Source: Dehalococcoidia bacterium
Lineage (GTDB): Bacteria > Chloroflexota > Dehalococcoidia > Lucifugimonadales > Lucifugimonadaceae
DNA: 64,000 nt
Direction: 5' to 3'
Assembly (NCBI GenBank): GCA_034423055.1
Contig: DAOUJE010000044.1
Coordinates: 6,328 to 70,327, forward strand
Shown here in pieces: positions 6,301 through 59,690 of the stretch (position 1 is the first letter of the stretch; every line of letters begins with the position of its first letter). Position numbers and translations under genes: made by a program. The notes under the pieces were generated by a model that was given only the letters and a program-made list of their open reading frames with translations, made no database searches and was not told the DNA's origin.

Positions 6301-9300
6301 GTCCCAAGAGTTCCGGCAACGTTACTTCACCCAACGCTTCACCCTCACCGACCCACGCGTTAACTACCGTGCGGAACAACGGACCGAGATCGATCCCGGT
6401 GTCCAACTTGGCCCGGTAGTAATCCGAAACATCCGCAGGTGACAGCCGAGTTTTCAGCTTCTCAAGGTCGATCCGTTCCCCGATTTCCAGCGGCGGTGCG
6501 GCGGTGGACGCACAACCTTCGACGTGCATCGTCCAACTGCCATCACTGCCTTTGCTGAAGACCTGTACGCCGCGTGCGGATGCCTGTCCGGAGTCGTCAA
6601 GCACAACCTGAACAGCCCGCCCCTCTTGGTCGGAATCATTGGCGGAGGCCTTTTCAGAAAAGACTAGTGGGTTGTGTAGTTGCATATCCTCAAGCACAAA
6701 GCAACCACCCTCTTCGGATGATGCCGTGACCGCCATCGCACCATACAAAGCGCCAGGTGCGACGATACGCCCGAAGACCCGGTGGTCGTTCAACCAAACG
6801 GGATCGAGAGGCAACACTTCGGTCTCATAGGAGATCTCGCCGCGGGCTCCTTCATGCCGGACTCCGAGCAATGGGTGGCCTGAAACCGCTCTCCGTTGTT
6901 TGCCTTGCTCAACCCAATGACGCTCCCGTTGGAACGGGTACATCGGAAGGGAAATCTTACGACGACTCTCTCCTGCGAATAGACCTTCAAATGAGATATC
7001 TAGACCGGCTTTGTAGGCGTCTGCAACGGCATCAACGAAACTGGTCTCAGCATCGGACGACGACTCGTCCCTCGGTGGCCTGCGCAGGCTGGCTATCGAT
7101 TCCGGTGCTTCGGACACGTTGGAACCTGCGACCGACTCTGGCCAGCAAAGGGTAGCCATCGGACCGAGCACCGAGTGCGGGCCTATCTCCACCACCAGAT
7201 CCACTCCGAGTTCCGCCATCGTTTTGACGCCGCTCGCGAACGCAACCGCTTCGCGTGCATGTCGCCTCCAGTACGCGCCGTCTAGGTTCATACCAGATTC
7301 AACCGCTTTACCCGTAAGATTGCTGACAAATGTCACCGACGGTGACCCGATCGATACACCCTCCAAAAACGATTCCAACGCGTCGAGCGATGGTTCAACG
7401 AGAGCGCTGTGGAACGCCTTGCTCGTGTTTAGCCTGCGTGCCCTGATGCCTTGGGATTCAGAGTGTTCGACGATCCGTTCGATGTCTGCGACTGGGCCGC
7501 TGACCACTTGGTGCGCGCCGTTATACCCTGCAATGCTCAACCCAACGCCAGCCGAGTCGGCGTTCAGTTGTTCAACTGTCGATTCGACTTCTGCCGCTGG
7601 CGCGAAAACGGCAGCCATCGTTCCGGTTTCTGTTGCCGATAAGAGCGTGCCCCGCACTGCCGCGAATCGCATTCCGTCTTCAAGACTGAAAACACCGGCA
7701 GTGTGTGCCGCTGCGATCTCTCCTACGCTGTGGCCCAAGACAACGCTCGGGCGGATGCCGACGCTCTCCCACAAATCCGTCAACGCGCAACCCAGCGCGT
7801 ACAACGCTGGCTGCTCCCACGCCGTATCGCTCAGATCCCCTTTCGCATCGTTCCTACCCCACATCACATCCAGGAGCGATTCGCCTCGTTCCTCCCTGAA
7901 CACCTTCTCACAACGGTCCATGACGGCACGGAATACCGGTTCGCTGTCATATAGGGCTTGCCCCATCCCTAACCATTGACTTCCTTGGCCCGTGTACAAA
8001 AACGCTATCCGGGTTGGTGACCCGGGTTCCGAAATCGGCGAATCTGCAGCCAACTCGCCGAGACGATCCTTCAATGAATCTGCATCGCTGAATACCACGC
8101 CCGATCGGCATTCGAAATGGGCCCTGCCCACTGCCGCCGTCCACGCCATGTCTGATAGCAATGCGTCGGCAGCGTCATCAGAGAGGTGGTCTCCCGCCAA
8201 CTTTTCGTCGAGCCAGGCAGTGTAACGCTTCGCTAGGTCCCGCACAGCACCTTCTGACTTGCCTGACAACGGTAGGAAACGATCTTGACGGCCACGGGTT
8301 GCGTTTTCCGACTTGGTGACCTGACCGTTCGGACTGGAATAGCTTTCCAACACGATATGGGCGTTCGTGCCGGAAATCCCGAACGAGTTGACTCCCGCTA
8401 TTCGTGGACTCCCGTCTCGTCGCGGCCAGTCCATATTCTCCGTCGTTACCTGCAACGGCAGGTTGTCCCAATCGAGTCTCGGATTAGGGTCGTTGAAATG
8501 TAAGTGTTTGGGAATGAAGCCTCGTTCGACCGCCATCACCGCTTTGATCAACCCCGCAATCCCGGCTGCTGATTCCAAATGCCCGACGTTGGTCTTGACC
8601 GATCCGATGAGGAGCGGCCGATCTGATTCCCGCCCTTCTCCGTAGACATTCGCCACCGCTTCAACCTCGATCGGGTCGCCAACCGCCGTACCTGTTCCGT
8701 GTGCTTCTAGATAATCGACCTCTGACGGCGGAATACCAGCATCAGCATGAGCAGTTTGGATCAACTTCTCCATCGCTGGAGCGTACGGCACGGTCAAACC
8801 TGCGCTCGCTCCGCCATGGTTGACGGCCGAGCCTCGAATCACCGCCCATATGCGATCACCGTCCGCTTCGGCGTCGCTCAATCGCTTCAAGACGACAACC
8901 CCGCAGCCTTCACCCCGCACGTAGCCGTCGGCAGAAGCATCAAATGTCTTGCACTGCCCTTCCGGGGACAACATCATGGCTTCGGCACGCAGCTCGTATA
9001 TGCGACCGTTGAGTATCGCTTGGACACCGCCGGCTAGCGCGAGATCGGCTTTCCCGTGCTGGAGATCGCTTACTGCGTCGTGAACCGCGACAAGTGCCGA
9101 CGCGCATGCGGCGTCGACTGCTTTGGCGGGACCGTTCAGACCAAGGACGAACGATACGCGACCCGCTGTCCCATTGAGGTTGGTGCCGCTAAGCGCATAG
9201 AGGCTACCCGCGGCTTCGGAGGGTCTGGTTGAATCCAGGACCAACATTCGGTATTCGTCATTGCTGATGCCGGAATAGACGCCGGTTCGGCTCTCTTTGA

Positions 9301-9712
9301 GCCGCGTCGGGTCAATACCTGCGTCCTCAAGCGCGAGCCAACAGGATTCCAGCATCATGCGCTGCTGAGGGTCGAGCAAATCAGCTTCCACCGGCGAGAT
9401 GCGGAAGAATCCAGCGTCGAACATGTCGATGTCATCGACGAACGCGCCGTAGCGACATGCATCGTTATCGACCGGAGCATCGCGGAAAATCTCCCCCATC
9501 CGCCCGTTTCCCGGACCCGCGAAACCCTCAGTCACGGCGTTCCCACCATCCATCAAGAGCCGCCAGAATGAATCTAGATCTTCCGCCCCGGGAAACTTGC
9601 ACGCCATCCCGACCACAGCAATAGATTCCCTCGATACATCTTCGAGCATCGCTTTACCGTTATATCCCGTTTCAGTCGACACAACAGCGCCTCGAGTATT
9701 GCCAGTTTCCAT
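1..9712 (-). CDS. Type I modular polyketide synthase, 5' part (about 3237 codons); 3' end lies beyond window start
   Basis: Minus-strand frame starts at ATG 9710-9712 (GGAG 4 nt upstream) and has no stop down to position 1, so the closed-ORF track omits it. My translation shows KS (DAACAS, EAHGTGT, KTNVGHLE), AT (FLYTGQGSQ, GHSVGE, KAFHS), DH (HRVFGRIVAPG), cMT (VLEVGAGTGS), ER (HAGAGGVGLAA), KR (VTGGLGGIG), ACP (LGMDSL), a second KS (DAACASS, EAHATGS, KSNLGHTE), then an AT-like region. Confidence 0.9.
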   Translation of the reverse strand, partial: METGNTRGAVVSTETGYNGKAMLEDVSRESIAVVGMACKFPGAEDLDSFWRLLMDGGNAVTEGFAGPGNGRMGEIFRDAPVDNDACRYGAFVDDIDMFDAGFFRISPVEADLLDPQQRMMLESCWLALEDAGIDPTRLKESRTGVYSGISNDEYRMLVLDSTRPSEAAGSLYALSGTNLNGTAGRVSFVLGLNGPAKAVDAACASALVAVHDAVSDLQHGKADLALAGGVQAILNGRIYELRAEAMMLSPEGQCKTFDASADGYVRGEGCGVVVLKRLSDAEADGDRIWAVIRGSAVNHGGASAGLTVPYAPAMEKLIQTAHADAGIPPSEVDYLEAHGTGTAVGDPIEVEAVANVYGEGRESDRPLLIGSVKTNVGHLESAAGIAGLIKAVMAVERGFIPKHLHFNDPNPRLDWDNLPLQVTTENMDWPRRDGSPRIAGVNSFGISGTNAHIVLESYSSPNGQVTKSENATRGRQDRFLPLSGKSEGAVRDLAKRYTAWLDEKLAGDHLSDDAADALLSDMAWTAAVGRAHFECRSGVVFSDADSLKDRLGELAADSPISEPGSPTRIAFLYTGQGSQWLGMGQALYDSEPVFRAVMDRCEKVFREERGESLLDVMWGRNDAKGDLSDTAWEQPALYALGCALTDLWESVGIRPSVVLGHSVGEIAAAHTAGVFSLEDGMRFAAVRGTLLSATETGTMAAVFAPAAEVESTVEQLNADSAGVGLSIAGYNGAHQVVSGPVADIERIVEHSESQGIRARRLNTSKAFHSALVEPSLDALESFLEGVSIGSPSVTFVSNLTGKAVESGMNLDGAYWRRHAREAVAFASGVKTMAELGVDLVVEIGPHSVLGPMATLCWPESVAGSNVSEAPESIASLRRPPRDESSSDAETSFVDAVADAYKAGLDISFEGLFAGESRRKISLPMYPFQRERHWVEQGKQRRAVSGHPLLGVRHEGARGEISYETEVLPLDPVWLNDHRVFGRIVAPGALYGAMAVTASSEEGGCFVLEDMQLHNPLVFSEKASANDSDQEGRAVQVVLDDSGQASARGVQVFSKGSDGSWTMHVEGCASTAAPPLEIGERIDLEKLKTRLSPADVSDYYRAKLDTGIDLGPLFRTVVNAWVGEGEALGEVTLPELLGRNELDVHPLLLDGCFQVVGLARNMSSAADEPTYLPFGWERMWLSNRLPDRLMCHVRMSESTQSVEHPEVLSGELHIYDINGGLIGGFSGYTVKRATPEALLSAVKEVDDLLYQVVWRDRSLEPGIVPADFFPSPSDVAAGSGLFADYLTEADVDPISRNALLTDLEHWSRSYALHTLEKLGWQRRSGDVLDAEELRKSLGVLEEHKRLFRRLLEMLAASGVLDERDDGFVVLLSPEDTLPGELPANPEAFHIQMSETYSHGLTEVGLFRRSGAALADVLRGQADPLTLLFSSGEPTAADLYLKAPVAKAANQMLADAVRKLVAELPEGRRLRVLEVGAGTGSATASVLPELPAEQFDYTYTDISAGFFAEAEARFGNDSIAYRPLDIEKDPIAHGFDSHGYDLLIASNVLHATRYLEETLGHCLALMAPSGHLVALENLRGLGWMDLTFGQLDGWWRFADDYRPHHALAGPSVWRRALKDAGFADSEVLGVDDSFTREMLDKGVIVAQGPERVTESTGVWILVADHGGVAEQLADKLSEQNQTVVIARNEEHQNGRQMPANPTATETVLDVGSRESWRSLIDDLPQDIPLCGVVHLHALDGHGNHAGTEEIIQDMKHAGESALALAQALVESNSTPAKGMWFITRGAQVLERESSGELAGSILWGLGKVLALEASHLRPRMVDLDPNATGESTEIVDELLFPDGENHIAYRSRQRYAARLVRHEEGDAHLNLPEGADWVLAPDPDGDFYRPAIKRLPPRPLEPREVRVAVEATGLNFWDVFRSMGFIEEGDLGRELCGHVVDVGSDVSSMAVGDRVVGLGFGAFAPEMITHEELVAPAPNGMSVSALATIPSAYVSAALSYRYSGLEKGDRVLIHAGAGGVGLAAIQLAQAAGAEVFATASAPKRDYLRSMGVTHIFDSRTTDFGNEILEVTGGAGIDVVLNSLTSEGFIDASLSCLAHGGRFVELARRDILTEAEMAALRPDVDYAILELDVLKKTEPDFVGEVLREVMEQITNGEVAPLVHSRWPLSEAGTALGFMRSARHIGKIVLTPQPLAKGGLRQDRAYLVTGGLGGIGLAVADWLAEHGAGTIVLNGRRKPGSEAEEAIQQLRNRGVNVEVELADVTDTSAIDAMLERIDANMPPLGGVIHSVGVLSDAALTNQTWASFEQVLWPKIIGAWHLHKATLDRDLDLFILFSSRVGVMGNPGQSNHAAANAFLDQLAGHRRALGLPGQSIAWGAWSEIGEAAEQRERIESRRAALGGRWFTPQQGIRALEQLVKEDTTTSVVMSMDWSVFEEAVAEPSSLVDELLSSTSSDGKADDVSSEDLISQLRGAQASEREDVLVSFVQQELQAVLRLTSSPSPTVGFFDLGMDSLMAVELRNRLNRAFDGEYVASNTIVFDYPNVSEMARHLAEELGEIGEEKQVFSIAVASTPEPSVDLRRNEDGIAIVGMAGRFPGADNLSQFWEMLESGTDAVTDGRRDTGSWEGAVGDPNADDLAYRRGAFLSDIDLFDSRFFRISPIEARLMDPRQRMLLETSWQALEDAGIDPGSLRGSRTGVYAGVGGSEYRDLIEASGRTDSYLGTTGSVTVGRVAFALGLEGPALPVDAACASSLASIHQAVVSLQHGEVDMALAGGVNLALSRPVSRFMMDVGMLSPTGVCSPFDAGADGYVRGEACGMVVLKRLSDAEADGDRIWAIIRGSGVNQNGASAGLTVPNGQAQERVMRETLAQAGIAPSEVDYLEAHATGSQLGDPIELNAAASVYSEGREPNRPLLVGSVKSNLGHTEWAAGVTALMKTVLSMNEGVIPKHLHFEDPNPHVEWDQLPVKVTEDKTEWPNGTDRAPIAGVNAFGMSGTNAHVLVEGYREASAVDTSNGLAKLPVGSPRNISISSNGVPQDSETNNGQETLPRPVRLLPLSGRSVGALRDIAIRYVDLLEAQEDAASDNWLSDLAWTASIGRSHFEHRAGVVFNDVESLVRGLNHVVDNSIDDDDGTERVARRVASIYLGDGLPRLDIAKALYETEPAVRSIFDRCEVVHQEVHGDSLIEVLRGQAESSDAGKSPATIASASYAFDCALTALWSSVGVNPRIAFGSGLGEVSAT
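715..1975 (-). other. PKS module 2 ketosynthase domain (approximate bounds)
   Basis: IAIVGMAGRFPGA ... VDAACASS (Cys codon 1475-1477) ... EAHATGSQLGDPIE ... KSNLGHTEWAAG ... GTNAHVLVEGY. Confidence 0.85.
2080..2290 (-). other. PKS acyl carrier protein domain (approximate bounds)
   Basis: FFDLGMDSLMAVELRNRL; phosphopantetheine Ser codon at 2183-2185. Confidence 0.8.
2560..3115 (-). other. PKS ketoreductase catalytic subdomain (approximate bounds)
   Basis: AYLVTGGLGGIGLAVADWL (Rossmann motif about 3079-3100) ... LFSSRVGVMGNPGQSNHAAANAFLD. Confidence 0.75.
3165..4060 (-). other. PKS enoylreductase domain (approximate bounds)
   Basis: MDR-type sequence GLNFWDV ... GDRVLIHAGAGGVGLAAIQLAQAAGAEVFATAS (about 3600-3680) ... 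HIGKIVL. Confidence 0.75.
4900..5560 (-). other. PKS C-methyltransferase domain (approximate bounds)
   Basis: SAM-binding motif VLEVGAGTGS at about 5275-5305, followed by DISAGF...YDLLIASNVLHAT, typical of PKS cMT domains. Confidence 0.7.
6050..6900 (-). other. PKS dehydratase domain (approximate bounds)
   Basis: GHPLLG ... LNDHRVFGRIVAPGALY, i.e. the HxxxGxxxxP motif (His codon 6782-6784). Confidence 0.7.
7100..8010 (-). other. PKS module 1 acyltransferase domain, malonyl-type (approximate bounds)
   Basis: FLYTGQGSQWLGMG at about 7960-8000. GHSVGE at 7718-7735 (Ser codon 7727-7729). KAFHS near 7406-7420, resembling the HAFH malonyl-specificity motif. Confidence 0.8.
8342..9619 (-). other. 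PKS module 1 ketosynthase domain (approximate bounds)
   Basis: IAVVGMACKFPG ... VDAACAS (Cys codon 9104-9106) ... EAHGTGT ... KTNVGHLE ... GTNAHIVLE. Confidence 0.85.
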
Positions 9713-9881
9713 AACGCTCCGTTTCACACGAAAAGGGGTTTCAGTAAACCTGTCTATCAAAGATTAGCATTCACATGTTCGAACCGTTCGGCTAGGCGAT
9801 CTCCTCTTGATGATCAGAGCGTGCGGAGATGTAAGCCTCTCATCACTTGTAAACTGTCTTGATAAGTAAGGGAGTTAATCC

Positions 9882-11993
9882 ATGAACTTGTCGCTATCGG
9901 TGCGGTTATCGCTACTAACATTGGTAGTCCTCGTAACGTTATTGTTTGTTGCTTGCCAAGATGACCCGGATCCCGTCACCATAATCAAAGAGGTCCCGGT
10001 GGAAGTCATCAAAGAGGTCGAGGTGGAGAAGGAGGTCATCAAGGAAGTTCCTGTCGAGAAAGAGGTGATTAAAGAGGTCGAGGTTGAAAAGGTGGTGGAG
10101 AAGATCGTCGAGGTAGAGAAGATTGTTGAACCCACCCCGGAACCAGAAGTTTCAGCAGGGCCGCCGATTTATCAGATGGGGATTTTCGAGGAGCCCATCT
10201 CAAGGAACTTCTGGAACTACTACGGCGGGCCGGCGGGTTCGGTATGGACGCAATACGTCCTCGATGGTCACTCGGGTGCGTTGTACGGCTACTCGGACCA
10301 GCGGTTCGATTGGGTGCCGGGTCTGGCGGCCGACTTCCCAACCGATCTGGTGAAGGAGACCGTCGGCGACGGCGAGTTCTGGACGGCAGAAGTACCGATC
10401 AGGAACGACGTTACTTGGAGCGATGGACAACAGCTGGATGCCAACGATTTCGTCTTCACCGTCAACACGGTCATGGACTTGAATCTCTCGTCGAGCTGGG
10501 CATCAGTGGTCGACCAGGCTTTCCTTGACCGCGTCGAAGCACTTGACAGTCACACTCTTAAGGTCTATTTCAAGACCGCAGATGAAGAAGGTAATCCACA
10601 GACACCAGGGTTGAGCGTGTGGCAGTTCGGATTGGGGTTCATGCCGGTACTCGCCGAACACTACTGGGCGCCAGTCGTTGAAGAGGTCAAGAAAGCCGGA
10701 GAGATCGAGCAGCAGCAGGAAGCCCTGTTCGCGCACATCCCGGACGGAGAGCCGTCCCTTGGCGGATTCACTTTCAACAAGTGGGAACCCGGCGCATTCT
10801 TCGAGAACAACACCGATCCCAATTACTTCGACAGCGGAACCGTGGTCAGCTTATACGAGAACGGTGCCTACTCGGTATCCAACGAGCGGACCGGACACTC
10901 AGCTACCTACTTCGGAGAGGCCAGCGGTGAGAAGGTGCTGGAGTACACGGTCGGGCCGCACGTCGAGTCGGAGTTGTTCAGCATCTACGGAAACCAAGAC
11001 GCGGCGATCCTAGCTCTCACAAAGGGCGACATCGACTACGTCTTCAACCCGCTTGGGCTGGAAAAAGGTTTCCTCGACCGTGTAAGAAATACGCCAGACC
11101 TACAGATAGCCACCAACGCCAACAACGGTGTCCGTTACATGGGTTTCAACGTTCGGAAGCCACCGATGGACATCACGGAGTTCAGGCAGGCGATCGCCAC
11201 GGTGATCGACAAGGAGTTCGTGGCAAGGACCGTGCTTCAAGACGCGGCTATCCCCGTCTACGCGATGGTGCCGGAGGGCAACGAGTTTTGGCACAACGCA
11301 GACGTTCCGACCTACGGCAAAGACTTGAGCCGCGGCGAGCGGATATCACAAGCCGTCGAGCTTCTCAAGAGCGCGGGTTTCACATACGAGGAAGAGCCCG
11401 AGATCAGCGAGGACGGCAACTTCATCGCGAAGCAAGGCAAAGGGCTTAAGATGCCAGACGGTACGCCAGTCCCCGAGATGACACTTTTGGCACCAAGCGC
11501 GGGTTACGATCCGATGCGGTCTACGTTCGCCATCTGGGTAGATCGGTGGCTGAACGACATCGGGATACCCGTGCGCGCCCAGTTGACTGGTTTCAACGTG
11601 ATCGTGGATGCGCTTTTCAGCGACACCGTCGCGGAAGACCTCGACATGTGGATCCTCGGTTGGGGACTCTCGATCTTCCCGGACTACTTGGAGAACTTCT
11701 TCCACAGCAGGCACTCGCCTGAGATCGGCGGCGGCTACAACTGGGGCGGATACGCCAACAGCGAGTTCGACGAACTCGCGCTCGGGTTGCTGTCGGAGAC
11801 GACGATCGATGGAGCGCGCGACAAGGTCTTCCAACTCCAAGAGTTCCTAGCCGAAGAGCTACCATACGTGCCGCTGTTCACCACCCCGAAGTTGGACGCG
11901 TACCGCCCGTCGCGGATCGAGTTCCCCTACACGTCGGTGCTCGGCGGACTAGAACAGCAGAATGGAATGCAGCAGGAAGTGGTGATCAAGTAG
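9882..11993 (+). CDS. ABC transporter substrate-binding lipoprotein, family 5 (peptide/nickel, OppA/DppA-like)
   Basis: 703-aa ORF with AAGGGAG SD. Signal peptide with lipobox LFVAC. SBP-5-like body; followed by OppBCDF-like genes. Confidence 0.8.
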   Translation: MNLSLSVRLSLLTLVVLVTLLFVACQDDPDPVTIIKEVPVEVIKEVEVEKEVIKEVPVEKEVIKEVEVEKVVEKIVEVEKIVEPTPEPEVSAGPPIYQMGIFEEPISRNFWNYYGGPAGSVWTQYVLDGHSGALYGYSDQRFDWVPGLAADFPTDLVKETVGDGEFWTAEVPIRNDVTWSDGQQLDANDFVFTVNTVMDLNLSSSWASVVDQAFLDRVEALDSHTLKVYFKTADEEGNPQTPGLSVWQFGLGFMPVLAEHYWAPVVEEVKKAGEIEQQQEALFAHIPDGEPSLGGFTFNKWEPGAFFENNTDPNYFDSGTVVSLYENGAYSVSNERTGHSATYFGEASGEKVLEYTVGPHVESELFSIYGNQDAAILALTKGDIDYVFNPLGLEKGFLDRVRNTPDLQIATNANNGVRYMGFNVRKPPMDITEFRQAIATVIDKEFVARTVLQDAAIPVYAMVPEGNEFWHNADVPTYGKDLSRGERISQAVELLKSAGFTYEEEPEISEDGNFIAKQGKGLKMPDGTPVPEMTLLAPSAGYDPMRSTFAIWVDRWLNDIGIPVRAQLTGFNVIVDALFSDTVAEDLDMWILGWGLSIFPDYLENFFHSRHSPEIGGGYNWGGYANSEFDELALGLLSETTIDGARDKVFQLQEFLAEELPYVPLFTTPKLDAYRPSRIEFPYTSVLGGLEQQNGMQQEVVIK
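9984..10130 (+). repeat. In-frame degenerate tandem repeat encoding an (I/V)KEV(P/E)VE(KEV) tether after the lipobox
   Basis: Protein residues 35-83: IKEVPVEV IKEVEVEKEV IKEVPVEKEV IKEVEVEKVVEK IVEVEK IVE. The DNA units atcaaagaggtc... visibly repeat. Confidence 0.85.
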
Positions 11994-24713: not shown

Positions 24714-26264
24714 TCAAGCGCCTACGAGTTCGATGGTGCCGACGGTTCCAGTATCGACATCGAGTCTGCGAACACTGTGGTTGTTAGTGTCGGCGACATA
24801 AACAGTTCCGTCGCGATACGAAATACCGGCCGGTTCATCGAAGCTCGCGTTGAGAGCATCTCCATCCGCAGTGCCCTGAGTTCCGTCACCAGCGACCGTG
24901 GTTACCCGAAGCGTGCTCAAATCCATGCGTTTGATCTTGTGGTTGTAGGAATCGGCGATATAGACCGCGCCGGGCGCCCACGTCACATCCTGCGGATGCT
25001 GCAACACCGCGTCTTTTCCGATGCCGTCGTGGTCACCGAAATCGAACAGCCCAGTACCAGTCAGCGTCACGACCCGTCCACCCGAGCCGATCTTTGCCAC
25101 CCTGATCGCGCTGGTTTCGGAATCGGCGAAAAAGAGGTTGTTGCCGTCGAGCGCCAACCCATACGGTTGGGCAAGCAATGCCTCCAAACGTTCACCGTCA
25201 ACGATATTTTCGGCACCGGTACCAGCGAACGGCTCGATCATCCCAGCGCTGACATCCATCTGCCAAAGCTGGTGTGCACCCGCCATTGCGATGTAGAGGA
25301 TTCCGTCGGCATATTCAAGGTCGTACGGAGAGTTGAGAGGAAAAGCTATAGCTTCGCCGCCAGCGTGACGGATGAGAGATTGCTCTCCCGTACCCGCGAT
25401 TACTGACACCATCCCGGATGCCATGTCCACGCGTTGGATTGTGTGGGTTCCAGCATCAGCCACAAAAAGCACTTCGCCATCGAGAGCCATGCCTTGAGGG
25501 TTGTCGAACAAAGGCGCATTGAAACTCCATTCGCTTCCGATGGGGTTCAACACACCGGGCGGAGGGTCGAACGACTCGAGTGCTAACGGGCTTTCGCCGT
25601 TACCGATGATGTTGCTGACTTTGCCGTCTTCGGTTGCGACGATGACGCGGTGGTGGTTGGAATCTGCGATGTAAAGGTTGCCGTCGTCCGCCGCGAGTAT
25701 CTTGCCCGGAAACGATAGCGCACCATGGCTTCCCGCTTCAGAACCGTATTCGAACGGAACAGGATCGCGGTTCAGCAGTCCAGAGCCGTCGAACTCATCG
25801 ACCATCGCGGTAAGCACGCGGTCCATCGCATCTAGCTGGAATTCGCCCTCGTGCCTCCCAATCACCTTGCCTTCCGGATCGATAAACATCAGCGTGGGCC
25901 ATGCCCGTGCGGCAAATGCGGACATCACGCGCAACTCGACATCGTTCACGACGGGATGGTTGACGTTATAACGGCTTGCCGCGGCGCGGACATTTTCGGT
26001 TGCTCGTTCGGTATCGAACTTTGCCGAGTGAATCCCGATCACGAACAGTTCGCCCGTATACTTCTTCTCCAGCTTCCGCAACTGCGGAAGTATATGCATG
26101 CAGTTAATTCAACAGTAGGTCCAAAAATCGAGAATAACGATCTTGCCGCGCAGATCGGACAGCTTTATCGGTTTGCTCGAGTTGATCCATTCGAGACCAT
26201 CAGGGAACTCTGGGGCGCGCACCTTTCCGGCGTAAGAGGGTGCAGTGGGTTGCGATGCGGCCAT
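24714..26264 (-). CDS. Thioredoxin-like / NHL-repeat protein (NHLRC2-like), putative selenoprotein with in-frame UGA
   Basis: Track ORFs 26109..26318 and 24714..26099 are the same frame, joined by TGA ATT AAC TGC. The read-through gives [22 protein letters not shown]. The start ATG at 26262-26264 has GGAG 8 nt upstream. The C-terminal part has repeated NHL-like blocks ([65 protein letters not shown]). Confidence 0.7.
26073..26090 (-). promoter_or_regulatory. Candidate bacterial SECIS hairpin
   Basis: mRNA sequence CUUCCGC-AGUU-GCGGAAG: perfect 7-bp stem, 4-nt loop containing GU, starting 18 nt after the UGA. Confidence 0.5.
26109..26111 (-). other. In-frame UGA proposed to encode selenocysteine (codon 52)
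   Basis: It sits at the first position of the xINC redox motif (C-[TGA]-I-N-C). selB is in the window and a hairpin lies 18 nt downstream. Confidence 0.6.
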
Positions 26265-26349
26265 GAATAGCGCTCCGATACGGTTAGTGGTTCGATGGAT
26301 ATAGCGCAATTGTCGCACGATCCGCGTTTATGTTTCGCATAATTGACTT

Positions 26350-27319: not shown

Positions 27320-28234
27320 ATGTCAGACAAACTGAAGGTATTGATCACAGGAGCAAGTGGCTACATAGCGTCGCAGATGCTCGCGGAGTATCGGGATCGT
27401 TACGATTTGACGCTGATCGATGCGATTGACACCGACCGCGATGGGAACCCAGTCGACGGCGTCCAAATCGTCGACCTGATTGACCCTGATCGCTCCGCAT
27501 ACGAAAAGCACTTTGCCGGACAGAATGCGGTCATACATCTCGCGTACAAGAGGTCGAGCCCGGGAGGTGTTTACGGCAGCGACGTTCCCCACATCGATCG
27601 CTTTGCCACCGAGCACGAAAACGTTCAGATGGCCAACAACGTCTACCGGTGCGCCTACGACGCGGATGTAAGGCGTGTTGTGGTCGCAAGTTCCAACCAC
27701 GCTGCCGATTGGTACGAACACGCGCTGATTCACAACCGCAAAAAAGAGATGGTCTTCGAAGACGAAGTACCGCTGTCGGACAATTTCTACGGTTGGGCGA
27801 AGGCGGCGTATGAGCTTCTTGCTTATCCGTACGCTTGCGGCGGATTTGGACGCAAACTGGAAGTCGTGCAGGTCCGCATCGGCAATCCGCGTGAGACCGA
27901 TGCCGACGAATTGCTCGCACACGCTGACGAGTTACACGGCGGCACGGGTCAATCGACGTATAAGCGTGGGTTAGGTGCTCACTTCAGCGAACGCGACCTC
28001 CGGCAGCTCTTCATCAAAGCGATCGAAACTCCCGATATCGAGAATGAGCACGGCGTTCCATGGTTAGTCGTCTATGGCATCAGTGCCAACACCCGCGCGT
28101 TCTGGTCGCTGGAGAATGCTCGTCGTGTGCTTGGTTACGAGCCGCAGGACGATTCCGAACTGAAGTTTACGAATCGGATCATCCAGCATTTGACCGTCGA
28201 TGATCCTGCGGGACCGGGCAAGGTCGGTGATTAA
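27320..28234 (+). CDS. NAD-dependent epimerase/dehydratase family (extended SDR) protein
   Basis: KVLITGASGYIASQM Rossmann motif; YGWAKAAYE (YxxxK). Confidence 0.75.
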   Translation: MSDKLKVLITGASGYIASQMLAEYRDRYDLTLIDAIDTDRDGNPVDGVQIVDLIDPDRSAYEKHFAGQNAVIHLAYKRSSPGGVYGSDVPHIDRFATEHENVQMANNVYRCAYDADVRRVVVASSNHAADWYEHALIHNRKKEMVFEDEVPLSDNFYGWAKAAYELLAYPYACGGFGRKLEVVQVRIGNPRETDADELLAHADELHGGTGQSTYKRGLGAHFSERDLRQLFIKAIETPDIENEHGVPWLVVYGISANTRAFWSLENARRVLGYEPQDDSELKFTNRIIQHLTVDDPAGPGKVGD

Positions 28235-28400
28235 GAGTTCGGCGGGAAGGGTAGAAGTTGGTGCGATTGCGGCACCGATTGGGTAAAGAGGCTACAAACC
28301 CTTGGTGCTAGCGCGATCTTAAGTTCTGACTCCAACGCCCTTCCCTGCCGTTCCATTGGTGGCTCACAGATTGCCGAACGTGAGCACACAACATGGCTTG

Positions 28401-29543
28401 CTAGAGCAGTGCTGGCACACGCGATTTTTCTCTCGGTCGATCGACCAGCCATTCGGGTGCACCGAACAGATCGTCAATGACATCATCTGCCGGTTCAGCG
28501 ACAAGGGGTACAGATGACGCGGTACCGACTAGATTGAAACTCTGTTCCGCATCTGTCCGAGTCGGCGATTCGGCATTGACCTTCTCCGCTCTTGGGCGCA
28601 TCCCGGCGAGGATGCTGATACGGAGTCGATTTGCTTTGCTTGAATCGCCGTTGGGGATGAAGGATGTCGACAACACCGCCTTTTGAGACAACTCATTCTG
28701 CACGACAGCAATTGCAGAATTGAGAGCTTTGATCGACATGTCGCGCGGCCCAGCGACGATCACGCTAACAAAATCTGCGTCGTTCAGATCCAGCCCTGAA
28801 GTGATCGGATGCTTGATAGCCTCGCGCGTTACCTTGCGGTATTCGGAAACATCCTCGCTAACCGCGTATGAGATCAGCGTCTCACCGCCGCATTTGATCG
28901 CATCCAGCAGCTCATGAGCGGTATTCAGTGTCCCGAACGATTCGGCATTCGACGCTGAGAGCACATTCATCACCACGCGAGCCTTCGCAGCCGAGAGTTC
29001 GGATGCCAAGTCACCAGCGATCGACGCGTTAGACAATGCGTTGTCGGCCTCAATCAGTGCAAGAGAGCAACCGGTGTTTCGAACGCGCTGCAACGCTGTG
29101 CGAGCGGTGTTCGATCGCGTACGACCTTCAAACGCGAATGGCATCGTCAAAATTGCCAGAACCGACGCACCTGTCGACATCGCGGTCCGAAGCACCGCGG
29201 GCAAGATTTCCACGGTTGTCGTCCCGCCTAAGCCAGCCATGACGAACACGATCGGCGCTTTGCCGATCAACGTCTTAAGTCGGAACAGGTCGTTTTTGTC
29301 GACATATTCGTAGTCCTCGATCCCTTCGCCCTCGCGAGTGAACATCGGATAACCGATCGAAATCCGTCGGCCGGTGTTGACTGCGCGTAGATCGTCCATC
29401 TCGCGATCCACAGCGATGACGTCGTCAGGATTTCCCAAAACTTTCGACAGTTCGGACGCAGTTCTGGCTCCCGCGCCGCCAACTCCAATAATCGCGAAAT
29501 CCTTGGATGCGGTGGCGTTTCGTCCATCTCGTATGATCGTCAT
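28401..29543 (-). CDS. Divergent FtsZ/tubulin-family paralogue
   Basis: FAIIGVGGAGARTA (G-box 1), IVFVMAGLGGTTTVEILP in place of [30 protein letters not shown] in place of NLDFAD. ATG at 29543 preceded by GGAGAG; the track ORF extends to a TTG at 29597. Confidence 0.7.
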   Translation of the reverse strand: MTIIRDGRNATASKDFAIIGVGGAGARTASELSKVLGNPDDVIAVDREMDDLRAVNTGRRISIGYPMFTREGEGIEDYEYVDKNDLFRLKTLIGKAPIVFVMAGLGGTTTVEILPAVLRTAMSTGASVLAILTMPFAFEGRTRSNTARTALQRVRNTGCSLALIEADNALSNASIAGDLASELSAAKARVVMNVLSASNAESFGTLNTAHELLDAIKCGGETLISYAVSEDVSEYRKVTREAIKHPITSGLDLNDADFVSVIVAGPRDMSIKALNSAIAVVQNELSQKAVLSTSFIPNGDSSKANRLRISILAGMRPRAEKVNAESPTRTDAEQSFNLVGTASSVPLVAEPADDVIDDLFGAPEWLVDRPREKSRVPALL

Positions 29544-29668
29544 GTTGCTCTCCAAGTAATGGGCATCGGGGGAATGCCTGTTGAAACTTCTGTTCAATTA
29601 TTAGGATAGCACACTGGTTCTAGTAAAATGCAAGCGCGAACACGATATTTTTCAGACATTTGTGAAAG

Positions 29669-30442
29669 GTGAATACATTGGCGGACGAAATCTCACACGA
29701 CAAACCAGCCAGTGATGCCGATCTGAGCGATCCGAGTCCGTCGCGAATTCTCAAATCGGCTGGCGAAACAGATCTAACCTACCAACTCAAGTGGGCTGCT
29801 TGGCGCTGGCTCTACTCGATAGCCGAATGTCGCGCGATCGGAATGGAAGTCAGGCTTGAAGGACCTTTCGGTCGCGTCGTAGATCTCGTTGGCATCGGCA
29901 AAAGCAACTTCGTGTATATCGTGGAAGTGAAGTCGTCAAGAGGCGATCTGAAACGCGATGACAAATCGGAAAGCGATCGTAAGCGTGCTGCGGCACAGCT
30001 CACGATGCTCCAAGACGCTGCGAGTTTGACCGCCACAGTCCTCAACGACGCGCGCCAGCATGCTGTGGAGACCACCAGATCGGGCACTGATTGGCGAGAA
30101 AACCCGGCTTATCTCTCAGCGCGGAGAGATCACGAAGACATCGAGAGACGGCTCGCCGCCAAGGAACGCACATTGGTACATTTCTCAACCAAATTCCATG
30201 ACCCCTCGTTCTTGGCGTGTGCGGACTTTCACTACGTAATGGCGCCAAGAGGCCTGATCAGTCGTTCTGAGCTACCACCGTTTTGGGGGCTTTTGAACGA
30301 AAGTTCCGAGATCGTTGTCTCAGCCGTTCAAAAACAGATTCGCAAAAACACAACACACGTGTTGCGTGCTATTGCCAAAGCCAACACGCGAGATTTGATG
30401 AAAGCGTGCGACATCAGGATCGCTAAGCCGCCCCCGGAATAG
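29669..30442 (+). CDS. PD-(D/E)XK nuclease-fold protein, MmcB-like
   Basis: GRVVDLVGIGKSNFVYIVEVKSSRGDL (D...E-x-K core) and C-terminal CADFHYVMAP...LPPFWGLL resemble the MmcB family as I remember it. GTG start. Confidence 0.45.
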   Translation: MNTLADEISHDKPASDADLSDPSPSRILKSAGETDLTYQLKWAAWRWLYSIAECRAIGMEVRLEGPFGRVVDLVGIGKSNFVYIVEVKSSRGDLKRDDKSESDRKRAAAQLTMLQDAASLTATVLNDARQHAVETTRSGTDWRENPAYLSARRDHEDIERRLAAKERTLVHFSTKFHDPSFLACADFHYVMAPRGLISRSELPPFWGLLNESSEIVVSAVQKQIRKNTTHVLRAIAKANTRDLMKACDIRIAKPPPE

Positions 30443-38763: not shown

Positions 38764-40617
38764 ATGTTCGTCGCAGGAACCGCAGGACACGTAGATCACG
38801 GCAAGTCTACCCTCATCGAGAAGCTGACCGGAATCGACCCGGATCGCCTGCGCGCCGAAAAAGCTCGAGGGATGACCATCGAACTCGGGTTTGCATGGCT
38901 CGAACTCGACGACGGAAGTGAAGTCAGCATTGTTGATGTGCCCGGGCATGAGCGCTTCGTCAAAACGATGCTCATGGGCGCGGGAGGTTTCGATCTCGCG
39001 CTCTTGGTCGTAGCCGGTGACGAAGGCCCGATGCCGCAGACACGCGAGCATTTGGCGATATTGGATCTGCTTGAAGTTAGCGATGGGATCGTGGTAATTA
39101 CAAAATCTGATCTCGCCGACGCCGAGTTGATCGAGCTGATCGAGATCGAAATATCGGAAATTCTGGAAGGCACGTCGCTCGAAGGCTCGCCAATGGTTGC
39201 GGTGTCAGCTGAGACTGGTGTCGGCTTGGATGATCTGCGCGGCATGATTACTGACTTTGCTCGAAACAAACCGGCGCGGCCCATTAACGAACGTCCAAGG
39301 CTCTTCATCGACCGAGCATTCAGCGTAGCCGGTTTTGGTGCGGTTGTGACTGGAACTCTTGATGGCGGGCAACTGAAGGTCGGCGACGAAGTCGCACTGC
39401 TTCCGTCTGGCGAAACCTGCCGCATCCGTGGATTGCAGAGCCACAAATCTCAGATCGATATCGCGGTTCCGCGCACACGAGTAGCGGTCAGCATCAGCGG
39501 TATTTCGCACACCGAGATTGAGCGCGGCGAAGCTCTAGTCAAGCGCGGCCAGTTTGATACCACGACGGTTTTCGACGCTTCGCTGAGGACGATTTCTGAT
39601 GCCAAACGTCCTGTAAAACACAATCATCACGTCACCCTATACGGCGGCACATGGGAAGAACCCGCGACAGTCCGATTGCTCTCTCACGACGAGTTGAAGG
39701 CTGGCGAAACGGGCTGGGCTCAGATCAAACTGAGCAACCCTCGCCCGATAATCAAAGGCGACCGTTTCGTTATCCGTGACAGCAACGACACGCTAGGCGG
39801 CGGTGTTGCACTGATCACCAGCGCTCCTCGCCACCGACGCAATGATCCATCGGTCATCGAGCATTTGCACGTTTTGTCCGAAGGCCGCCCAAAGGATGTC
39901 ATCGTCCACGCGCTAGACCAACTCGTAGTTGCCAACTGCATTCAAATTGCCGAAGCCGCGCACATGCTGACCAGCGATGTAGAAGCGGAGTTGTCCGAAT
40001 TAACCGGTATGGAAGCCTTGATCCGTCTAACGGCAGGCGTGACACCTCTGTACATAACAAAATCAAACCAAGATTCGTTGCGGGCCCAAACGAGAGATGC
40101 GCTAACCGATTACCACAACAGATATCCCTTACGCCGCGGGATGCCGCGGCAAGAACTGCGGAATCGGCTACGGCTCGATTCGAGCGGGTTCGACGCTGTA
40201 GTCGATAACATCGTGAATGATGGTTTGATGTCGCAAGACGGCACCACTGTCAGGATGGCGGACCATGAAGTCACGTTCACTCCCACTCAGACGCAGGAAT
40301 CGGATCGTTTTTTGGCTGTTCTGCGTGAGCATCGCTATTCTCCTCCCGCTTGGAACAAGATCGATGCCGAGTTGCTAAGCGCCCTTATCGACCGTCGCGA
40401 GGTTGTCAGCGCCGGGCCGGAGGTTGTCTTCGCCGCCGAGGTTTTCGACGAGATGCGAGACAAGATCATTGACTACTGCCAGATTAACGACGAGGTCTCT
40501 ATCAACGACGTTCGGGAGTTGCTCGGGACCAGTAGGAAATACTCGCTCGCGCTCTTGGAGCAGTTGGATCGCGACAACGTGACCATGCGCGTCGGCGACA
40601 TGAGGGTGTTGAGGTGA
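38764..40617 (+). CDS. selB: Selenocysteine-specific translation elongation factor
   Basis: MFVAGTAGHVDHGKSTLIEKLTGIDPDRLRAEKARGMTIELGF, DVPGHERF, ITKSD. The 617-aa length includes the C-terminal winged-helix extension typical of bacterial SelB. Confidence 0.85.
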   Translation: MFVAGTAGHVDHGKSTLIEKLTGIDPDRLRAEKARGMTIELGFAWLELDDGSEVSIVDVPGHERFVKTMLMGAGGFDLALLVVAGDEGPMPQTREHLAILDLLEVSDGIVVITKSDLADAELIELIEIEISEILEGTSLEGSPMVAVSAETGVGLDDLRGMITDFARNKPARPINERPRLFIDRAFSVAGFGAVVTGTLDGGQLKVGDEVALLPSGETCRIRGLQSHKSQIDIAVPRTRVAVSISGISHTEIERGEALVKRGQFDTTTVFDASLRTISDAKRPVKHNHHVTLYGGTWEEPATVRLLSHDELKAGETGWAQIKLSNPRPIIKGDRFVIRDSNDTLGGGVALITSAPRHRRNDPSVIEHLHVLSEGRPKDVIVHALDQLVVANCIQIAEAAHMLTSDVEAELSELTGMEALIRLTAGVTPLYITKSNQDSLRAQTRDALTDYHNRYPLRRGMPRQELRNRLRLDSSGFDAVVDNIVNDGLMSQDGTTVRMADHEVTFTPTQTQESDRFLAVLREHRYSPPAWNKIDAELLSALIDRREVVSAGPEVVFAAEVFDEMRDKIIDYCQINDEVSINDVRELLGTSRKYSLALLEQLDRDNVTMRVGDMRVLR

Positions 40618-57676: not shown

Positions 57677-58228
57677 TTACGAAGCCGCCGTCGCCTTTGA
57701 GCGATTTCGACGGTTTGAGTGCCGGATCGCTGGCCTTAATGGACTGGGCAACAAGGTGCCTTGCAGATCGGATGCTTCCGAAGCGGCACGGCCTAGCATG
57801 TCAACCTCAGCAGCGAATCGTTCCGGGTCTTCGAAGTCGTTGTAAACCGACGCAAACCGCAGATATGCAACATCGTCAAGCATTTTCAAATGGTTAAGAA
57901 CCATCTCGCCTATGATCCCGGATTCGATTCGGTCGCGTCCTTCGTTGACAGCTCGTTGTTGGATCTCTTCCACAATCTCTTCGATCGCGCCTACTGGCAG
58001 ATACCTTTTGGCACACGCTATCCGAATGCTTCTCGTCAGTTTCTCTGTCGAAAATGCCTCTAATTTGCCGCTCCGCTTTGCAACCATCAACCGTGTATTG
58101 TACACACGTTCTAACGTTGTGAAGCGAACCGAACAGTCGGCGCACTCGCGGCGACGGCGAACCAAGTCGTCTCTGACACGCGTGTCGAGGACGCGAGTTT
58201 CCGGATGTCTACAGTCTGGACAGTGCAT
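57677..58228 (-). CDS. nrdR: Transcriptional repressor NrdR
   Basis: MHCPDCRHPETRVLDTRV...CADCSVRFTTLE (zinc ribbon), then an ATP-cone. Confidence 0.9.
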   Translation of the reverse strand: MHCPDCRHPETRVLDTRVRDDLVRRRRECADCSVRFTTLERVYNTRLMVAKRSGKLEAFSTEKLTRSIRIACAKRYLPVGAIEEIVEEIQQRAVNEGRDRIESGIIGEMVLNHLKMLDDVAYLRFASVYNDFEDPERFAAEVDMLGRAASEASDLQGTLLPSPLRPAIRHSNRRNRSKATAAS

Positions 58229-58493: not shown

Positions 58494-59690
58494 TTACCGG
58501 TCCTTGATAAAACGCTGATACTCGCGTTCTATCGACCGATGCGAAGGCGGGACATTCAAATTGCTACTGTCTTCAAGGGCGGCTCTGGCTTTTTGCGCCC
58601 GTTCTTCACCGTACGCGTCAACACCCGAAATATCTTCGAATCCGGTTGCGATGATGGTGATCTTCAACTCGTTCTCCATCCGGAGGTCTTGAGTCGTGCC
58701 AAAAATGATCTCCGCGTCAGGATGGACCTGCTCTTTCACGGTCTCCGAGATCTTTCGAACTTCCGCCATCATCAAATCGGGACCGCTAGTGATGTTGAAC
58801 AGTACTCCCGTAGCACCGTCGATCTTGACTTCCAGCAAGGGTGAACTGAGGGCCGACGTTATCGCGGCGTTCGTGCGATCAATTCCGTTTCCCTTGCCGA
58901 TCGCCATCCACGCGGGACCAGCGTCCCGCATCACCGTCCTAAGGTCCGCGAAATCTAAATTGATCTCGCCAGGAAGCAACAGCAAGTCGGTGATCGACTG
59001 GATGCCCTGCCGCAAAACCTCGTCCGCCATCCGAAACGCTACCTCAACCGATGTGTCAGGCGCCGATACTAGAAGCAACCGTTCGTTCGGAATCACGATC
59101 ATCGTATCGACTTCTTCGGCCAGGCGGTTCAAACCCTCAGCAGCTTGTTGGTCCCGCTGATACCCCTCGAAGGGAAACGGTTTAGTGACCACGCCGATCG
59201 TCAAGCAACCAAGTTCACGCTTAGCGATGTTCGCCACTACCGGCGCACCGCCGGTGCCAGTGCCACCACCCATCCCGGCAGCTATGAAAACCAGATCCGC
59301 GCCACTTAAAACATCGCGTATCTCTTCGCGGCTATCAAAGAAACACTCTCGTCCGATCTGAGGATTCCCGCCGACACCGAGTCCGCCGGCGATACGATCG
59401 CCGACGCGCAACCGTATCGACGCTTCAGTGTACGCGAGCGCTTGTGCATCAGTGTTCGCTGCGATGTACTCGACGCTCGGTATCCGACTTCGGTACATGC
59501 GTGTAAGCGCGTTTGAGCCGCCGCCGCCAACGCCTACAACCTTGATGTTGACCGACGGATTGCGCCTGCGCCTGATTGACGTTGATAACGTGGTTGTCAA
59601 CTTGAACTGATGCGCCCTTCGACACGCGAGCAACCACTCAATAAGCCTACGTGCTAATAGCGTAGCGACACGCGCTTCGTAGCCGCTCAA
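58494..59690 (-). CDS. ftsZ: Cell division protein FtsZ (canonical)
   Basis: [57 protein letters not shown]. Start uncertain: the longest ORF uses TTG at 59690, and a TTG at 59600 would give a more typical N-terminus. Confidence 0.9.

Follow-up and report, generated by a model that had tools for sequence, protein, structure and literature searches.

A lineage-specific FtsZ paralogue of SAR202/Dehalococcoidia with degenerate GTPase motifs and a palindromic operator of the type found at imuB-dnaE2 clusters

The window analysed in this work, a 64-kb stretch (64,000 nucleotides) of contig DAOUJE010000044.1 of a Dehalococcoidia bacterium, carries, besides a canonical ftsZ, a second gene of the FtsZ family, here named FtsZL. 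It encodes a genuine FtsZ-fold protein, which departs from bona fide FtsZ in the tubulin signature, the T7 loop, the score against the TIGR00065 model and the gene context. FtsZL is a working gene under purifying selection and a fixed-locus, lineage-specific (SAR202/Dehalococcoidia) FtsZ paralogue, the window copy of which belongs to a sponge/coral-associated clade. Its conserved partner is a palindromic operator (TAGNAC-N4-GTNCTA), of which one or two 16-bp copies cover the likely promoter, and not the MmcB-like gene located divergently upstream. We tentatively propose, as a possibility that falls somewhat short of an even chance, that FtsZL is a DNA-damage-regulated, catalytically dead FtsZ, which would antagonise the Z ring.

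The initial annotation, made from the sequence of the window alone, had reported a monocistronic open reading frame (ORF) of 380 amino acids (aa) and had interpreted its product as a divergent FtsZ paralogue, which may be regulatory or structural rather than serving as the divisome scaffold. The ORF was confirmed as intact and assigned to the minus strand, the paralogy was borne out by the Pfam and TIGR00065 profile searches and by Foldseek, and the regulatory role is supported as probable. The ATG codon has GGAGAG on its 5' side, and the N-terminus MTIIRDGRN is common to the orthologues. An alternative, longer start (TTG at 29597) would sit within the conserved operator region, which argues that the ATG coordinates are correct. 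Since the downstream epimerase gene is convergent and the upstream neighbour divergent, FtsZL is monocistronic.

In Pfam, the protein matched Tubulin/FtsZ (PF00091) with 37.7 bits (cut-off 33) and FtsZ_C (PF12327) with 25 bits, slightly under the cut-off of 27. Against TIGR00065, the NCBIfam equivalog model of bona fide FtsZ, it scored 68.4 bits versus a cut-off of 295.2, the resident ftsZ reaching 393.7. The nearest solved relatives are FtsZ proteins (phmmer, Methanocaldococcus jannaschii 1FSZ, E = 6e-16). The AlphaFold2 model, built from a 62-sequence alignment (mean predicted local distance difference test (pLDDT) 73, predicted template modelling (TM) score 0.72), has both domains confident, mostly with pLDDT >80, and values below 50 at residues 68-75, 200-209, 320-359 and in a part of the tail. 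In a Foldseek comparison with the Protein Data Bank (PDB), all of the top 50 matches were FtsZs (target-normalised TM 0.75-0.82). No match to the Tubulin_2/FtsZl-1, TubZ or PhuZ families was obtained at E<=0.1 in Pfam/NCBIfam (no CetZ-specific model was run), the PHROGs gave no match, and the PADLOC defence library gave only a chance-level match to Cmr5. One 840-aa match, P0127, was considered as an intermediate form and rejected, as it is a tandem canonical FtsZ.

For the motif map (Table 1), 23 members of the FtsZL family were aligned with hmmalign to a hidden Markov model (HMM) of 39 ordinary FtsZs, and MAFFT was applied as a cross-check. The alignments agree with the T1, T5 and T4 motifs (GVGGAG, PFAFEGRTR and GLGGTTTV) read previously. 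The GTP-binding motifs had also been described as degenerate, which is real, but the extent was understated, as T2, T3, T6 and H7 are degenerate too. The Tubulin/FtsZ signature GGGTG[ST]G is absent from T4, and the T3-equivalent of the family is a variable acidic stretch. T6 reads DAD (EAD in the window copy) and H7 reads AG-x-L-A-S-E, so that the base-contact Phe and Asp of AFxxAD are gone. The segment DLNDAD, which the initial annotation took for T7, had been misaligned; according to phmmer, MAFFT and hmmalign it belongs to the C-terminal domain. The true T7 equivalent, GTLNTA-(gap)-[PH]E in the family, retains an invariant N207, has Ala for the first Asp, and brings a Glu to the position of the second Asp only after a one-residue gap; it overlaps the low-confidence residues 200-209 of the model. 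The NxDxxD synergy loop with its catalytic Asp is absent from FtsZL.

Escherichia coli FtsZ mutants in the signature Gly/Thr residues (ftsZ84, ftsZ3) and in the Asp residues of T7 lose GTP binding or hydrolysis. By analogy with these mutants, FtsZL is probably a pseudo-GTPase, and the state of its motifs suggests that GTP binding may be lost. Because the T7 loop and, in the sponge clade, most of the nucleotide-contact residues are lost, the protein would presumably be unable to serve as a normal GTP-hydrolysing filament subunit.

The C-terminal part of FtsZL consists of a variable linker followed by a conserved tail of the pattern DLFGAPxWL...RVPALL, and in the alignment the terminal P-A-L-L lies opposite the I-P-x-[FW]-L of FtsZ. 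This tail, the loose likeness of which to the FtsZ anchor peptide was remarked on in the initial annotation, is a conserved feature with invariant residues, located after a relaxed linker. In comparisons with eight orthologues, the ratio of nonsynonymous to synonymous substitution rates (dN/dS) was 0.08-0.15 overall and 0.06-0.12 for residues 1-315, and dN was low over the last 25 residues. Sixteen orthologous loci were translated as far as their stop codon, and the ORF proved intact in each of them.

A word-indexed search of 5.8 billion proteins delimited a tight FtsZL family (about 64 clusters, 55-100% identical), beyond which the next matches were ordinary FtsZs at E of about 1e-15, with no gradation. 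When 1.84 billion representatives of clusters at 50% identity were searched with a profile, only four full-length clusters (plus fragments) exceeded 260 bits. Within one-genome-per-species GTDB contigs, FtsZL was found in 32 genomes, each of which bears Dehalococcoidia, Chloroflexi or SAR202 in its title. Many of them originate from sponge or coral projects on metagenome-assembled genomes; the matches were full-length at 30 of these 32 loci. The DNA of the window itself matches a sponge metagenome run. All FtsZL copies occupy one syntenic locus: thioredoxin (Trx)/NHL - RDD - epimerase - FtsZL - MmcB-like - aminotransferase - methyltransferase - tetratricopeptide repeat (TPR). In the searchable literature, no description was found of this family or any other FtsZ paralogue from Chloroflexi/SAR202, nor of an SOS inhibitor derived from FtsZ.

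Free-living pelagic SAR202 also possess homologues of the MmcB-like protein (about 50% identity), and there too the gene forms a divergent pair with a 353-aa gene of the Tubulin family in an equivalent epimerase...aminotransferase-methyltransferase locus. A scan of Joint Genome Institute (JGI) metagenomes added 29 further pelagic FtsZ-like loci. Their products retain T1, T3 (GFGSGG), T5, the Asn of T6 and the AFxxAD of H7, together with a near-canonical T4 (GLGRGTGSG), and in all 22 pelagic proteins aligned the T7 loop is deleted. In the subgroup L120-L124, T2, T3 and T4 were separately lost too. The pelagic tail, SIFDTP..R.RGPxLLPxG, is highly conserved, and its two motifs match those of the sponge-type DLFGAP..RVPALL. 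We regard the pelagic and the sponge forms as orthologous on the grounds of synteny, operator and tail. Common to all lineages are the FtsZ fold, a lost or degenerate T7 loop, a linker with a conserved tail, and an operator of the imuB type.

A phylogenetic footprint of the FtsZL/MmcB-like intergenic region, covering 31 loci, many with saturated synonymous sites, revealed two conserved 16-mers, 25 bp apart, in which the half-sites are fixed and the 4-bp spacer is free. On the FtsZL strand, box 2 terminates in TGCTATCCT, a TGnTAnnnT extended -10-like element, and box 1 is located just downstream. As the boxes overlap or flank this element, their occupancy would be expected to block the FtsZL promoter. 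With a strict degenerate pattern and at most one mismatch, box 2 was the sole match in the window (0.76 expected), and of the 60 matches to a looser pattern within 574 kb of sponge-clade loci, 46 fell in the FtsZL/MmcB-like intergenic region. At the pelagic loci, a TAGAAC-N4-GTGCTA element (differing from the loose pattern at no more than one position) lies about 70-170 nt upstream of FtsZL in 27 of the 28 scanned, with or without the MmcB-like gene; the sole exception, L122, has 54 bp of upstream DNA only.

Palindromes of the operator type were also identified at most 100 bp upstream of imuB-dnaE2 in L086, L089, L090 and L091, as well as upstream of a DUF559-imuB-dnaE2 cluster in L092 (Table 1), and they adjoin AT-rich -10-like hexamers. 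L089, L090 and L091 are from genomes that carry FtsZL as well. A chance origin of four such sites in regions of about 120 bp is very unlikely, because the background is about one site per 15-50 kb and the four matches are independent. The imuB-dnaE2 cassettes are reportedly controlled, as a rule, by LexA. They are damage-inducible (PMC9578287). Compared with RGTACNNNDGTWCB, the LexA box of cyanobacteria, the operator agrees at 13 of 14 positions, and it is also similar to the CGAACN4GTTCG LexA box of Bacillus subtilis (PMC3091678). The presence of this operator type on imuB-dnaE2 promoters suggests damage-inducible expression of FtsZL, with LexA as the candidate regulator binding its operator.

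Two further elements were observed in the window. The sequence TTGTAC-ACAC-GTTCTA at 58098-58113, one mismatch from the loose operator pattern, falls within the 5' portion of nrdR, with a class II ribonucleotide reductase gene (55121-57616) downstream of it; this could be a chance occurrence. Just upstream of the MmcB-like start (29645-29660) there is a third conserved element of the intergenic region, GACA-N2-TGTC, GACAATTGTC in many loci and GACATTTGTG in the window, a pattern that is not special in the window.

The MmcB-like protein of the window scored 19 bits against PF06319, below the cut-off of 22. This model matched all 30 MmcB-like homologues at E<=0.01 (best 1.5e-5), a profile matched PDB 3dnx (E 2e-4), and the protein shows a D..EVK motif. 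The divergent pairing with FtsZL, pointed out in the initial annotation, is real and common, being present at 30 of the 32 genome loci (the remaining pair is truncated), at L081, L087 and L088, and at several pelagic loci. The neighbour is, however, not a conserved partner: L082 lacks it, and so do about half of the pelagic loci, in which the aminotransferase gene directly precedes the pelagic FtsZL. In Caulobacter, MmcB is SOS-regulated (PMC9578287). An MmcB-like paralogue (60% identity) without an FtsZ-like gene was found at L086:5000-12765. Its neighbourhood is of the DNA-damage type (SRAP, a PIN toxin-antitoxin pair, GmrSD, imuB and dnaE2), and TAGCAT-CTCC-GTTCTG stands upstream of it.

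Table 1. Features of the FtsZL gene, its intergenic region and related loci (window positions unless a locus is named).
Feature	Position	Strand	Evidence or remarks
FtsZL coding sequence, 380 aa + stop	28401..29543	-	intact ORF; Pfam Tubulin/FtsZ; AlphaFold2 and Foldseek; dN/dS
T1 loop GVGGAG, kept	29469..29486	-	G20, G22, G23, G25 invariant in the family and the FtsZs aligned
T2 position, VDR for FtsZ NTD	29403..29411	-	hmmalign; V45, D46, R47 invariant in the family
T3-equivalent YPMFTREGEGIEDYE; GLGxGGNP gone	29307..29351	-	shorter than FtsZ T3, variable, pLDDT <50 at 68-75
T4 GLGGTTTVE for GMGGGTGTG	29208..29234	-	family consensus GLGG-x-TT-x-E; E112 invariant
T5 PFAFEGRTR, kept	29115..29141	-	P135, F136, E139, G140, R143 invariant, FtsZ included
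T6 IEADN (FtsZ IPN) and H7 start AGDLASE (FtsZ AFxxADE)	28998..29054	-	base-contact residues replaced
True T7 equivalent GTLNTAHEL (FtsZ G.iNlDFADv), residues 204-212	28908..28934	-	three independent alignments
DLNDAD, residues 252-257, C-terminal domain	28773..28790	-	pairs with FtsZ ..IDGATGVL
Variable linker, probably disordered, residues 316-355	28479..28598	-	dN/dS 0.3-0.77; pLDDT <50
Conserved C-terminal peptide IDDLFGAPEWLVD...RVPALL	28404..28478	-	G361, A362, P363, W365, L366 invariant
Operator box 1, TGAAAC-TTCT-GTTCAA (TAGCAC-TTCT-GTTCAA in many orthologues)	29582..29597	.	footprint, motif scans
Operator box 2, TAGCAC-ACTG-GTTCTA	29607..29622	.	only strict match (<=1 mismatch) in the window; matched in nearly all loci scanned
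MmcB-like PD-(D/E)xK nuclease-fold gene, divergent from FtsZL	29669..30442	+	PF06319 19 bits; PDB 3dnx
Canonical ftsZ (context)	58494..59690	-	TIGR00065 394 bits
ftsA (context), 443 aa	59795..61126	-	Pfam FtsA and SHS2_FTSA
L086 imuB-dnaE2 upstream site, TAGCAC-TGAT-ATGCTA			
L089 imuB-dnaE2 upstream site, TAGAAC-AAAT-ATACTA			
L090 imuB-dnaE2 upstream site, TAGTAT-TTTT-ATGCTA			
L091 imuB-dnaE2 upstream site, TAGCAA-ATTT-GTGCTA			
L092 imuB-dnaE2 upstream site, TCGTAC-ATTC-GTTCTA			
Pelagic FtsZ-like proteins, 340-359 aa	L083:4724-5785, L084:4713-5777, L094-L124		

FtsZL is located about 29 kb from the ftsA-ftsZ pair, outside the division cluster. The canonical ftsZ gene had been placed at 58494-59690 without a strand; the gene is real and is encoded on the minus strand, as a plus-strand reading, ruled out here, contains 10 stop codons. 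At the C-terminus of the canonical FtsZ (58494-58560, minus strand), the usual anchor D-I-P-x-F-L-R reads L-N-V-P-P-S-H-R, with Ser for Phe, and is followed by 13 additional residues. The FtsA translation (59795-61126, minus strand) contains a directly repeated heptapeptide (..ERVIDVERSLIDVERSLTRV..).

Other genes of the window also deserve mention. The 69-aa and 461-aa ORFs at 24714-26318 (minus strand) represent one thioredoxin-fold/NHL-repeat gene, split by an in-frame TGA at 26109-26111. This codon stands at the first Cys of the CxxC redox motif (context F-W-T-Y-C-[TGA]-I-N-C) and is conserved in all 32 orthologous loci in which the motif was found. Judging from this context, the product is very likely a selenocysteine (UxxC) protein, a reading which is supported by the presence in the window of a gene for SelB, the selenocysteine-specific elongation factor (GTP_EFTU and SelB winged-helix domains; 38764-40617, plus strand). 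A stop-free frame of more than 3254 aa, from 1 to about 9763 on the minus strand, runs past the left end of the window. As its start is ketosynthase-like (..VAVVGMACKFPGA..DAACASALVA..), it encodes a giant polyketide synthase, which accounts for the lack of listed ORFs in 2500-9900.

According to the mechanism that we propose for FtsZL, the gene would be repressed in normal growth and induced upon DNA damage. The protein would then antagonise the Z ring by capping or sequestering FtsZ, in the manner of a dead "poison" subunit; alternatively or additionally, its tail could compete for the anchor that binds the FtsZ tail. Division would thereby be delayed during repair. In such a scheme FtsZL is predicted to interact with FtsZ or FtsA and to inhibit division. 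A fuller evolutionary scenario, which we consider less likely than not, would be that SAR202 bacteria duplicated FtsZ, deleted its T7 face and put the copy under an SOS-type operator, creating a damage checkpoint based on Z-ring poisoning, and that in sponge symbionts the copy became a nucleotide-free pseudo-GTPase.

Several observations weigh against the proposed damage-regulated antagonist. Neither recA nor lexA was found in the 1.56 Mb examined by tblastn (queries: E. coli RecA, and LexA of E. coli and B. subtilis), and the GAAC-N4-GTTC pattern (at most one mismatch) is not enriched in the window, with 42 sites found and 35 expected. A scan of 28200-29800 with the generic sigma-70 consensus and for terminators gave no sites, and the sequence matches sponge metagenome DNA runs only, with no RNA runs. 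Moreover, the family HMM scores the pelagic proteins at 46-52 bits and generic FtsZs at 47-90 bits. With pelagic scores within or just below the generic FtsZ range, a sequence-based sister relationship of the sponge and pelagic forms is unsupported, and it is for this reason that their orthology was argued from locus, operator and tail. Finally, the "top" face of the sponge-clade protein is also much altered, which makes capping via the canonical GTP interface less obvious than in the pelagic form. If it binds FtsZ, the sponge-clade FtsZL needs a remodelled interface, and this is the weakest link of the proposal for the window protein.

Other explanations of the same data were weighed. FtsZL could be a constitutive, non-catalytic partner of FtsZ in ordinary division or cell shape, its operator serving a regulator that does not respond to damage; this comes close to the interpretation of the initial annotation. 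The FtsZ fold, the linker and conserved tail, and the purifying selection would all suit this role, and LexA is a candidate regulator only; we nevertheless consider it unlikely, though still credible, given that the gene stands outside the ftsA-ftsZ cluster, operators of the imuB-dnaE2 type lie across its promoter, and the T7 loop has been lost in every lineage. It is rather unlikely that FtsZL is a DNA-repair accessory, which would leave the Z ring alone and assist the MmcB-like nuclease and the translesion machinery, for instance by scaffolding damaged DNA or tethering it to the membrane. The frequency of the divergent pairing (30 of the 32 genome loci, L081, L087, L088 and several pelagic loci) and the operator type in common with imuB-dnaE2 speak for such a role. 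Nevertheless, L082 and about half of the pelagic loci have retained FtsZL and its operator without the MmcB-like gene, one MmcB-like paralogue stands apart from any FtsZL, and no DNA-binding feature was seen in FtsZL.

An autonomous cytomotive filament of the TubZ/CetZ kind, with an unusual nucleotide pocket, would be compatible with the retention of T1 and T5, with the family-specific invariant residues D46, R47 and E112 in the former pocket, and with the pelagic form, which retains most of the GTP loops. This explanation appears improbable, as no lineage has an intact T7 catalytic loop (it is either deleted or degenerate), the window form has a degenerate T4 and no T3, no TubZ, PhuZ or Tubulin_2 model matches, and FtsZs alone make up the Foldseek top 50. 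The loss of many canonical motifs might also be expected of a decaying, functionless duplicate, but the ORF intact in 16 of 16 loci, the full-length matches at 30 of 32 genome loci, a dN/dS of about 0.1, the family's own invariant residues and the conserved tail effectively refute this view.

If the proposal of a damage-regulated Z-ring antagonist is true, FtsZL would be the first bacterial SOS division inhibitor made from FtsZ itself, and the acquisition of an inhibitor via a disabled copy of its target would constitute a new evolutionary route. It would also be the natural counterpart of the laboratory "capper" mutants that established the polarity of FtsZ filaments. The series from pelagic to sponge forms, i.e., from the loss of T7 alone to the loss of T7 and the GTP-pocket motifs, would offer natural variants for defining the surfaces needed in Z-ring poisoning. 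Furthermore, TAGNAC-N4-GTNCTA is a candidate SOS box for SAR202, an abundant uncultured ocean and sponge lineage, the stress regulation of which is essentially unknown.

In comparison with canonical FtsZ (1FSZ; Staphylococcus aureus 5MN5), FtsZL has the same two-domain fold, T1 and T5 loops, and a disordered linker followed by a conserved C-terminal peptide, whereas it differs in the T2, T3, T4, T6, H7 and T7 residues, the TIGR00065 score, the locus and the palindromic operator. Like FtsZl-1/Tubulin_2, FtsZl-2, TubZ/PhuZ, CetZ and FtsZm, it is a divergent member of the superfamily encoded outside the division and cell wall (dcw) cluster; in contrast, it has no Pfam, NCBIfam or PHROG match to these families and is structurally closest to FtsZ proper. 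To our knowledge, all these families keep functional GTPase motifs. FtsZL may instead be a regulated pseudo-enzyme paralogue of FtsZ, as its motifs and operator suggest.

According to a preprint (bioRxiv 10.1101/2020.02.25.965095, summarising Redick 2005 and Du 2018), division is stopped by FtsZ mutants in which the bottom interface is blocked, some of them acting sub-stoichiometrically, because they cap the growing end of the filament. FtsZL resembles such engineered T7/bottom-interface mutants in its defective bottom face, and the pelagic form, with GTP loops kept and T7 deleted, is of the same kind. It differs as a natural, separately encoded and regulated gene, and the window form is also devoid of the nucleotide-pocket motifs. 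SOS-linked division inhibitors arose repeatedly, and in every case known to us the starting point was a small unrelated protein. The bottom face of FtsZ is the binding site of SulA and MciZ, as stated in the same preprint (bioRxiv 10.1101/2020.02.25.965095). The logic proposed for FtsZL, a regulated block of the Z ring or divisome, is similar to that of SulA, YneA, SidA/DidA, ChiZ, DivS and MciZ (the last one developmental), but these inhibitors are small and unrelated in sequence and fold, whereas FtsZL is derived from FtsZ and its damage control is proposed from sequence. Plant ARC3, which contains an FtsZ-like domain, inhibits Z-ring assembly directly, and this domain is not known to have GTPase function. 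As a component of the chloroplast Min system, ARC3 parallels the proposed role of FtsZL in being a protein with an FtsZ-like domain that opposes the Z ring; it is, however, a eukaryotic, multi-domain (MORN) and positional regulator, not regulated by damage, and its origin is independent of that of FtsZL.

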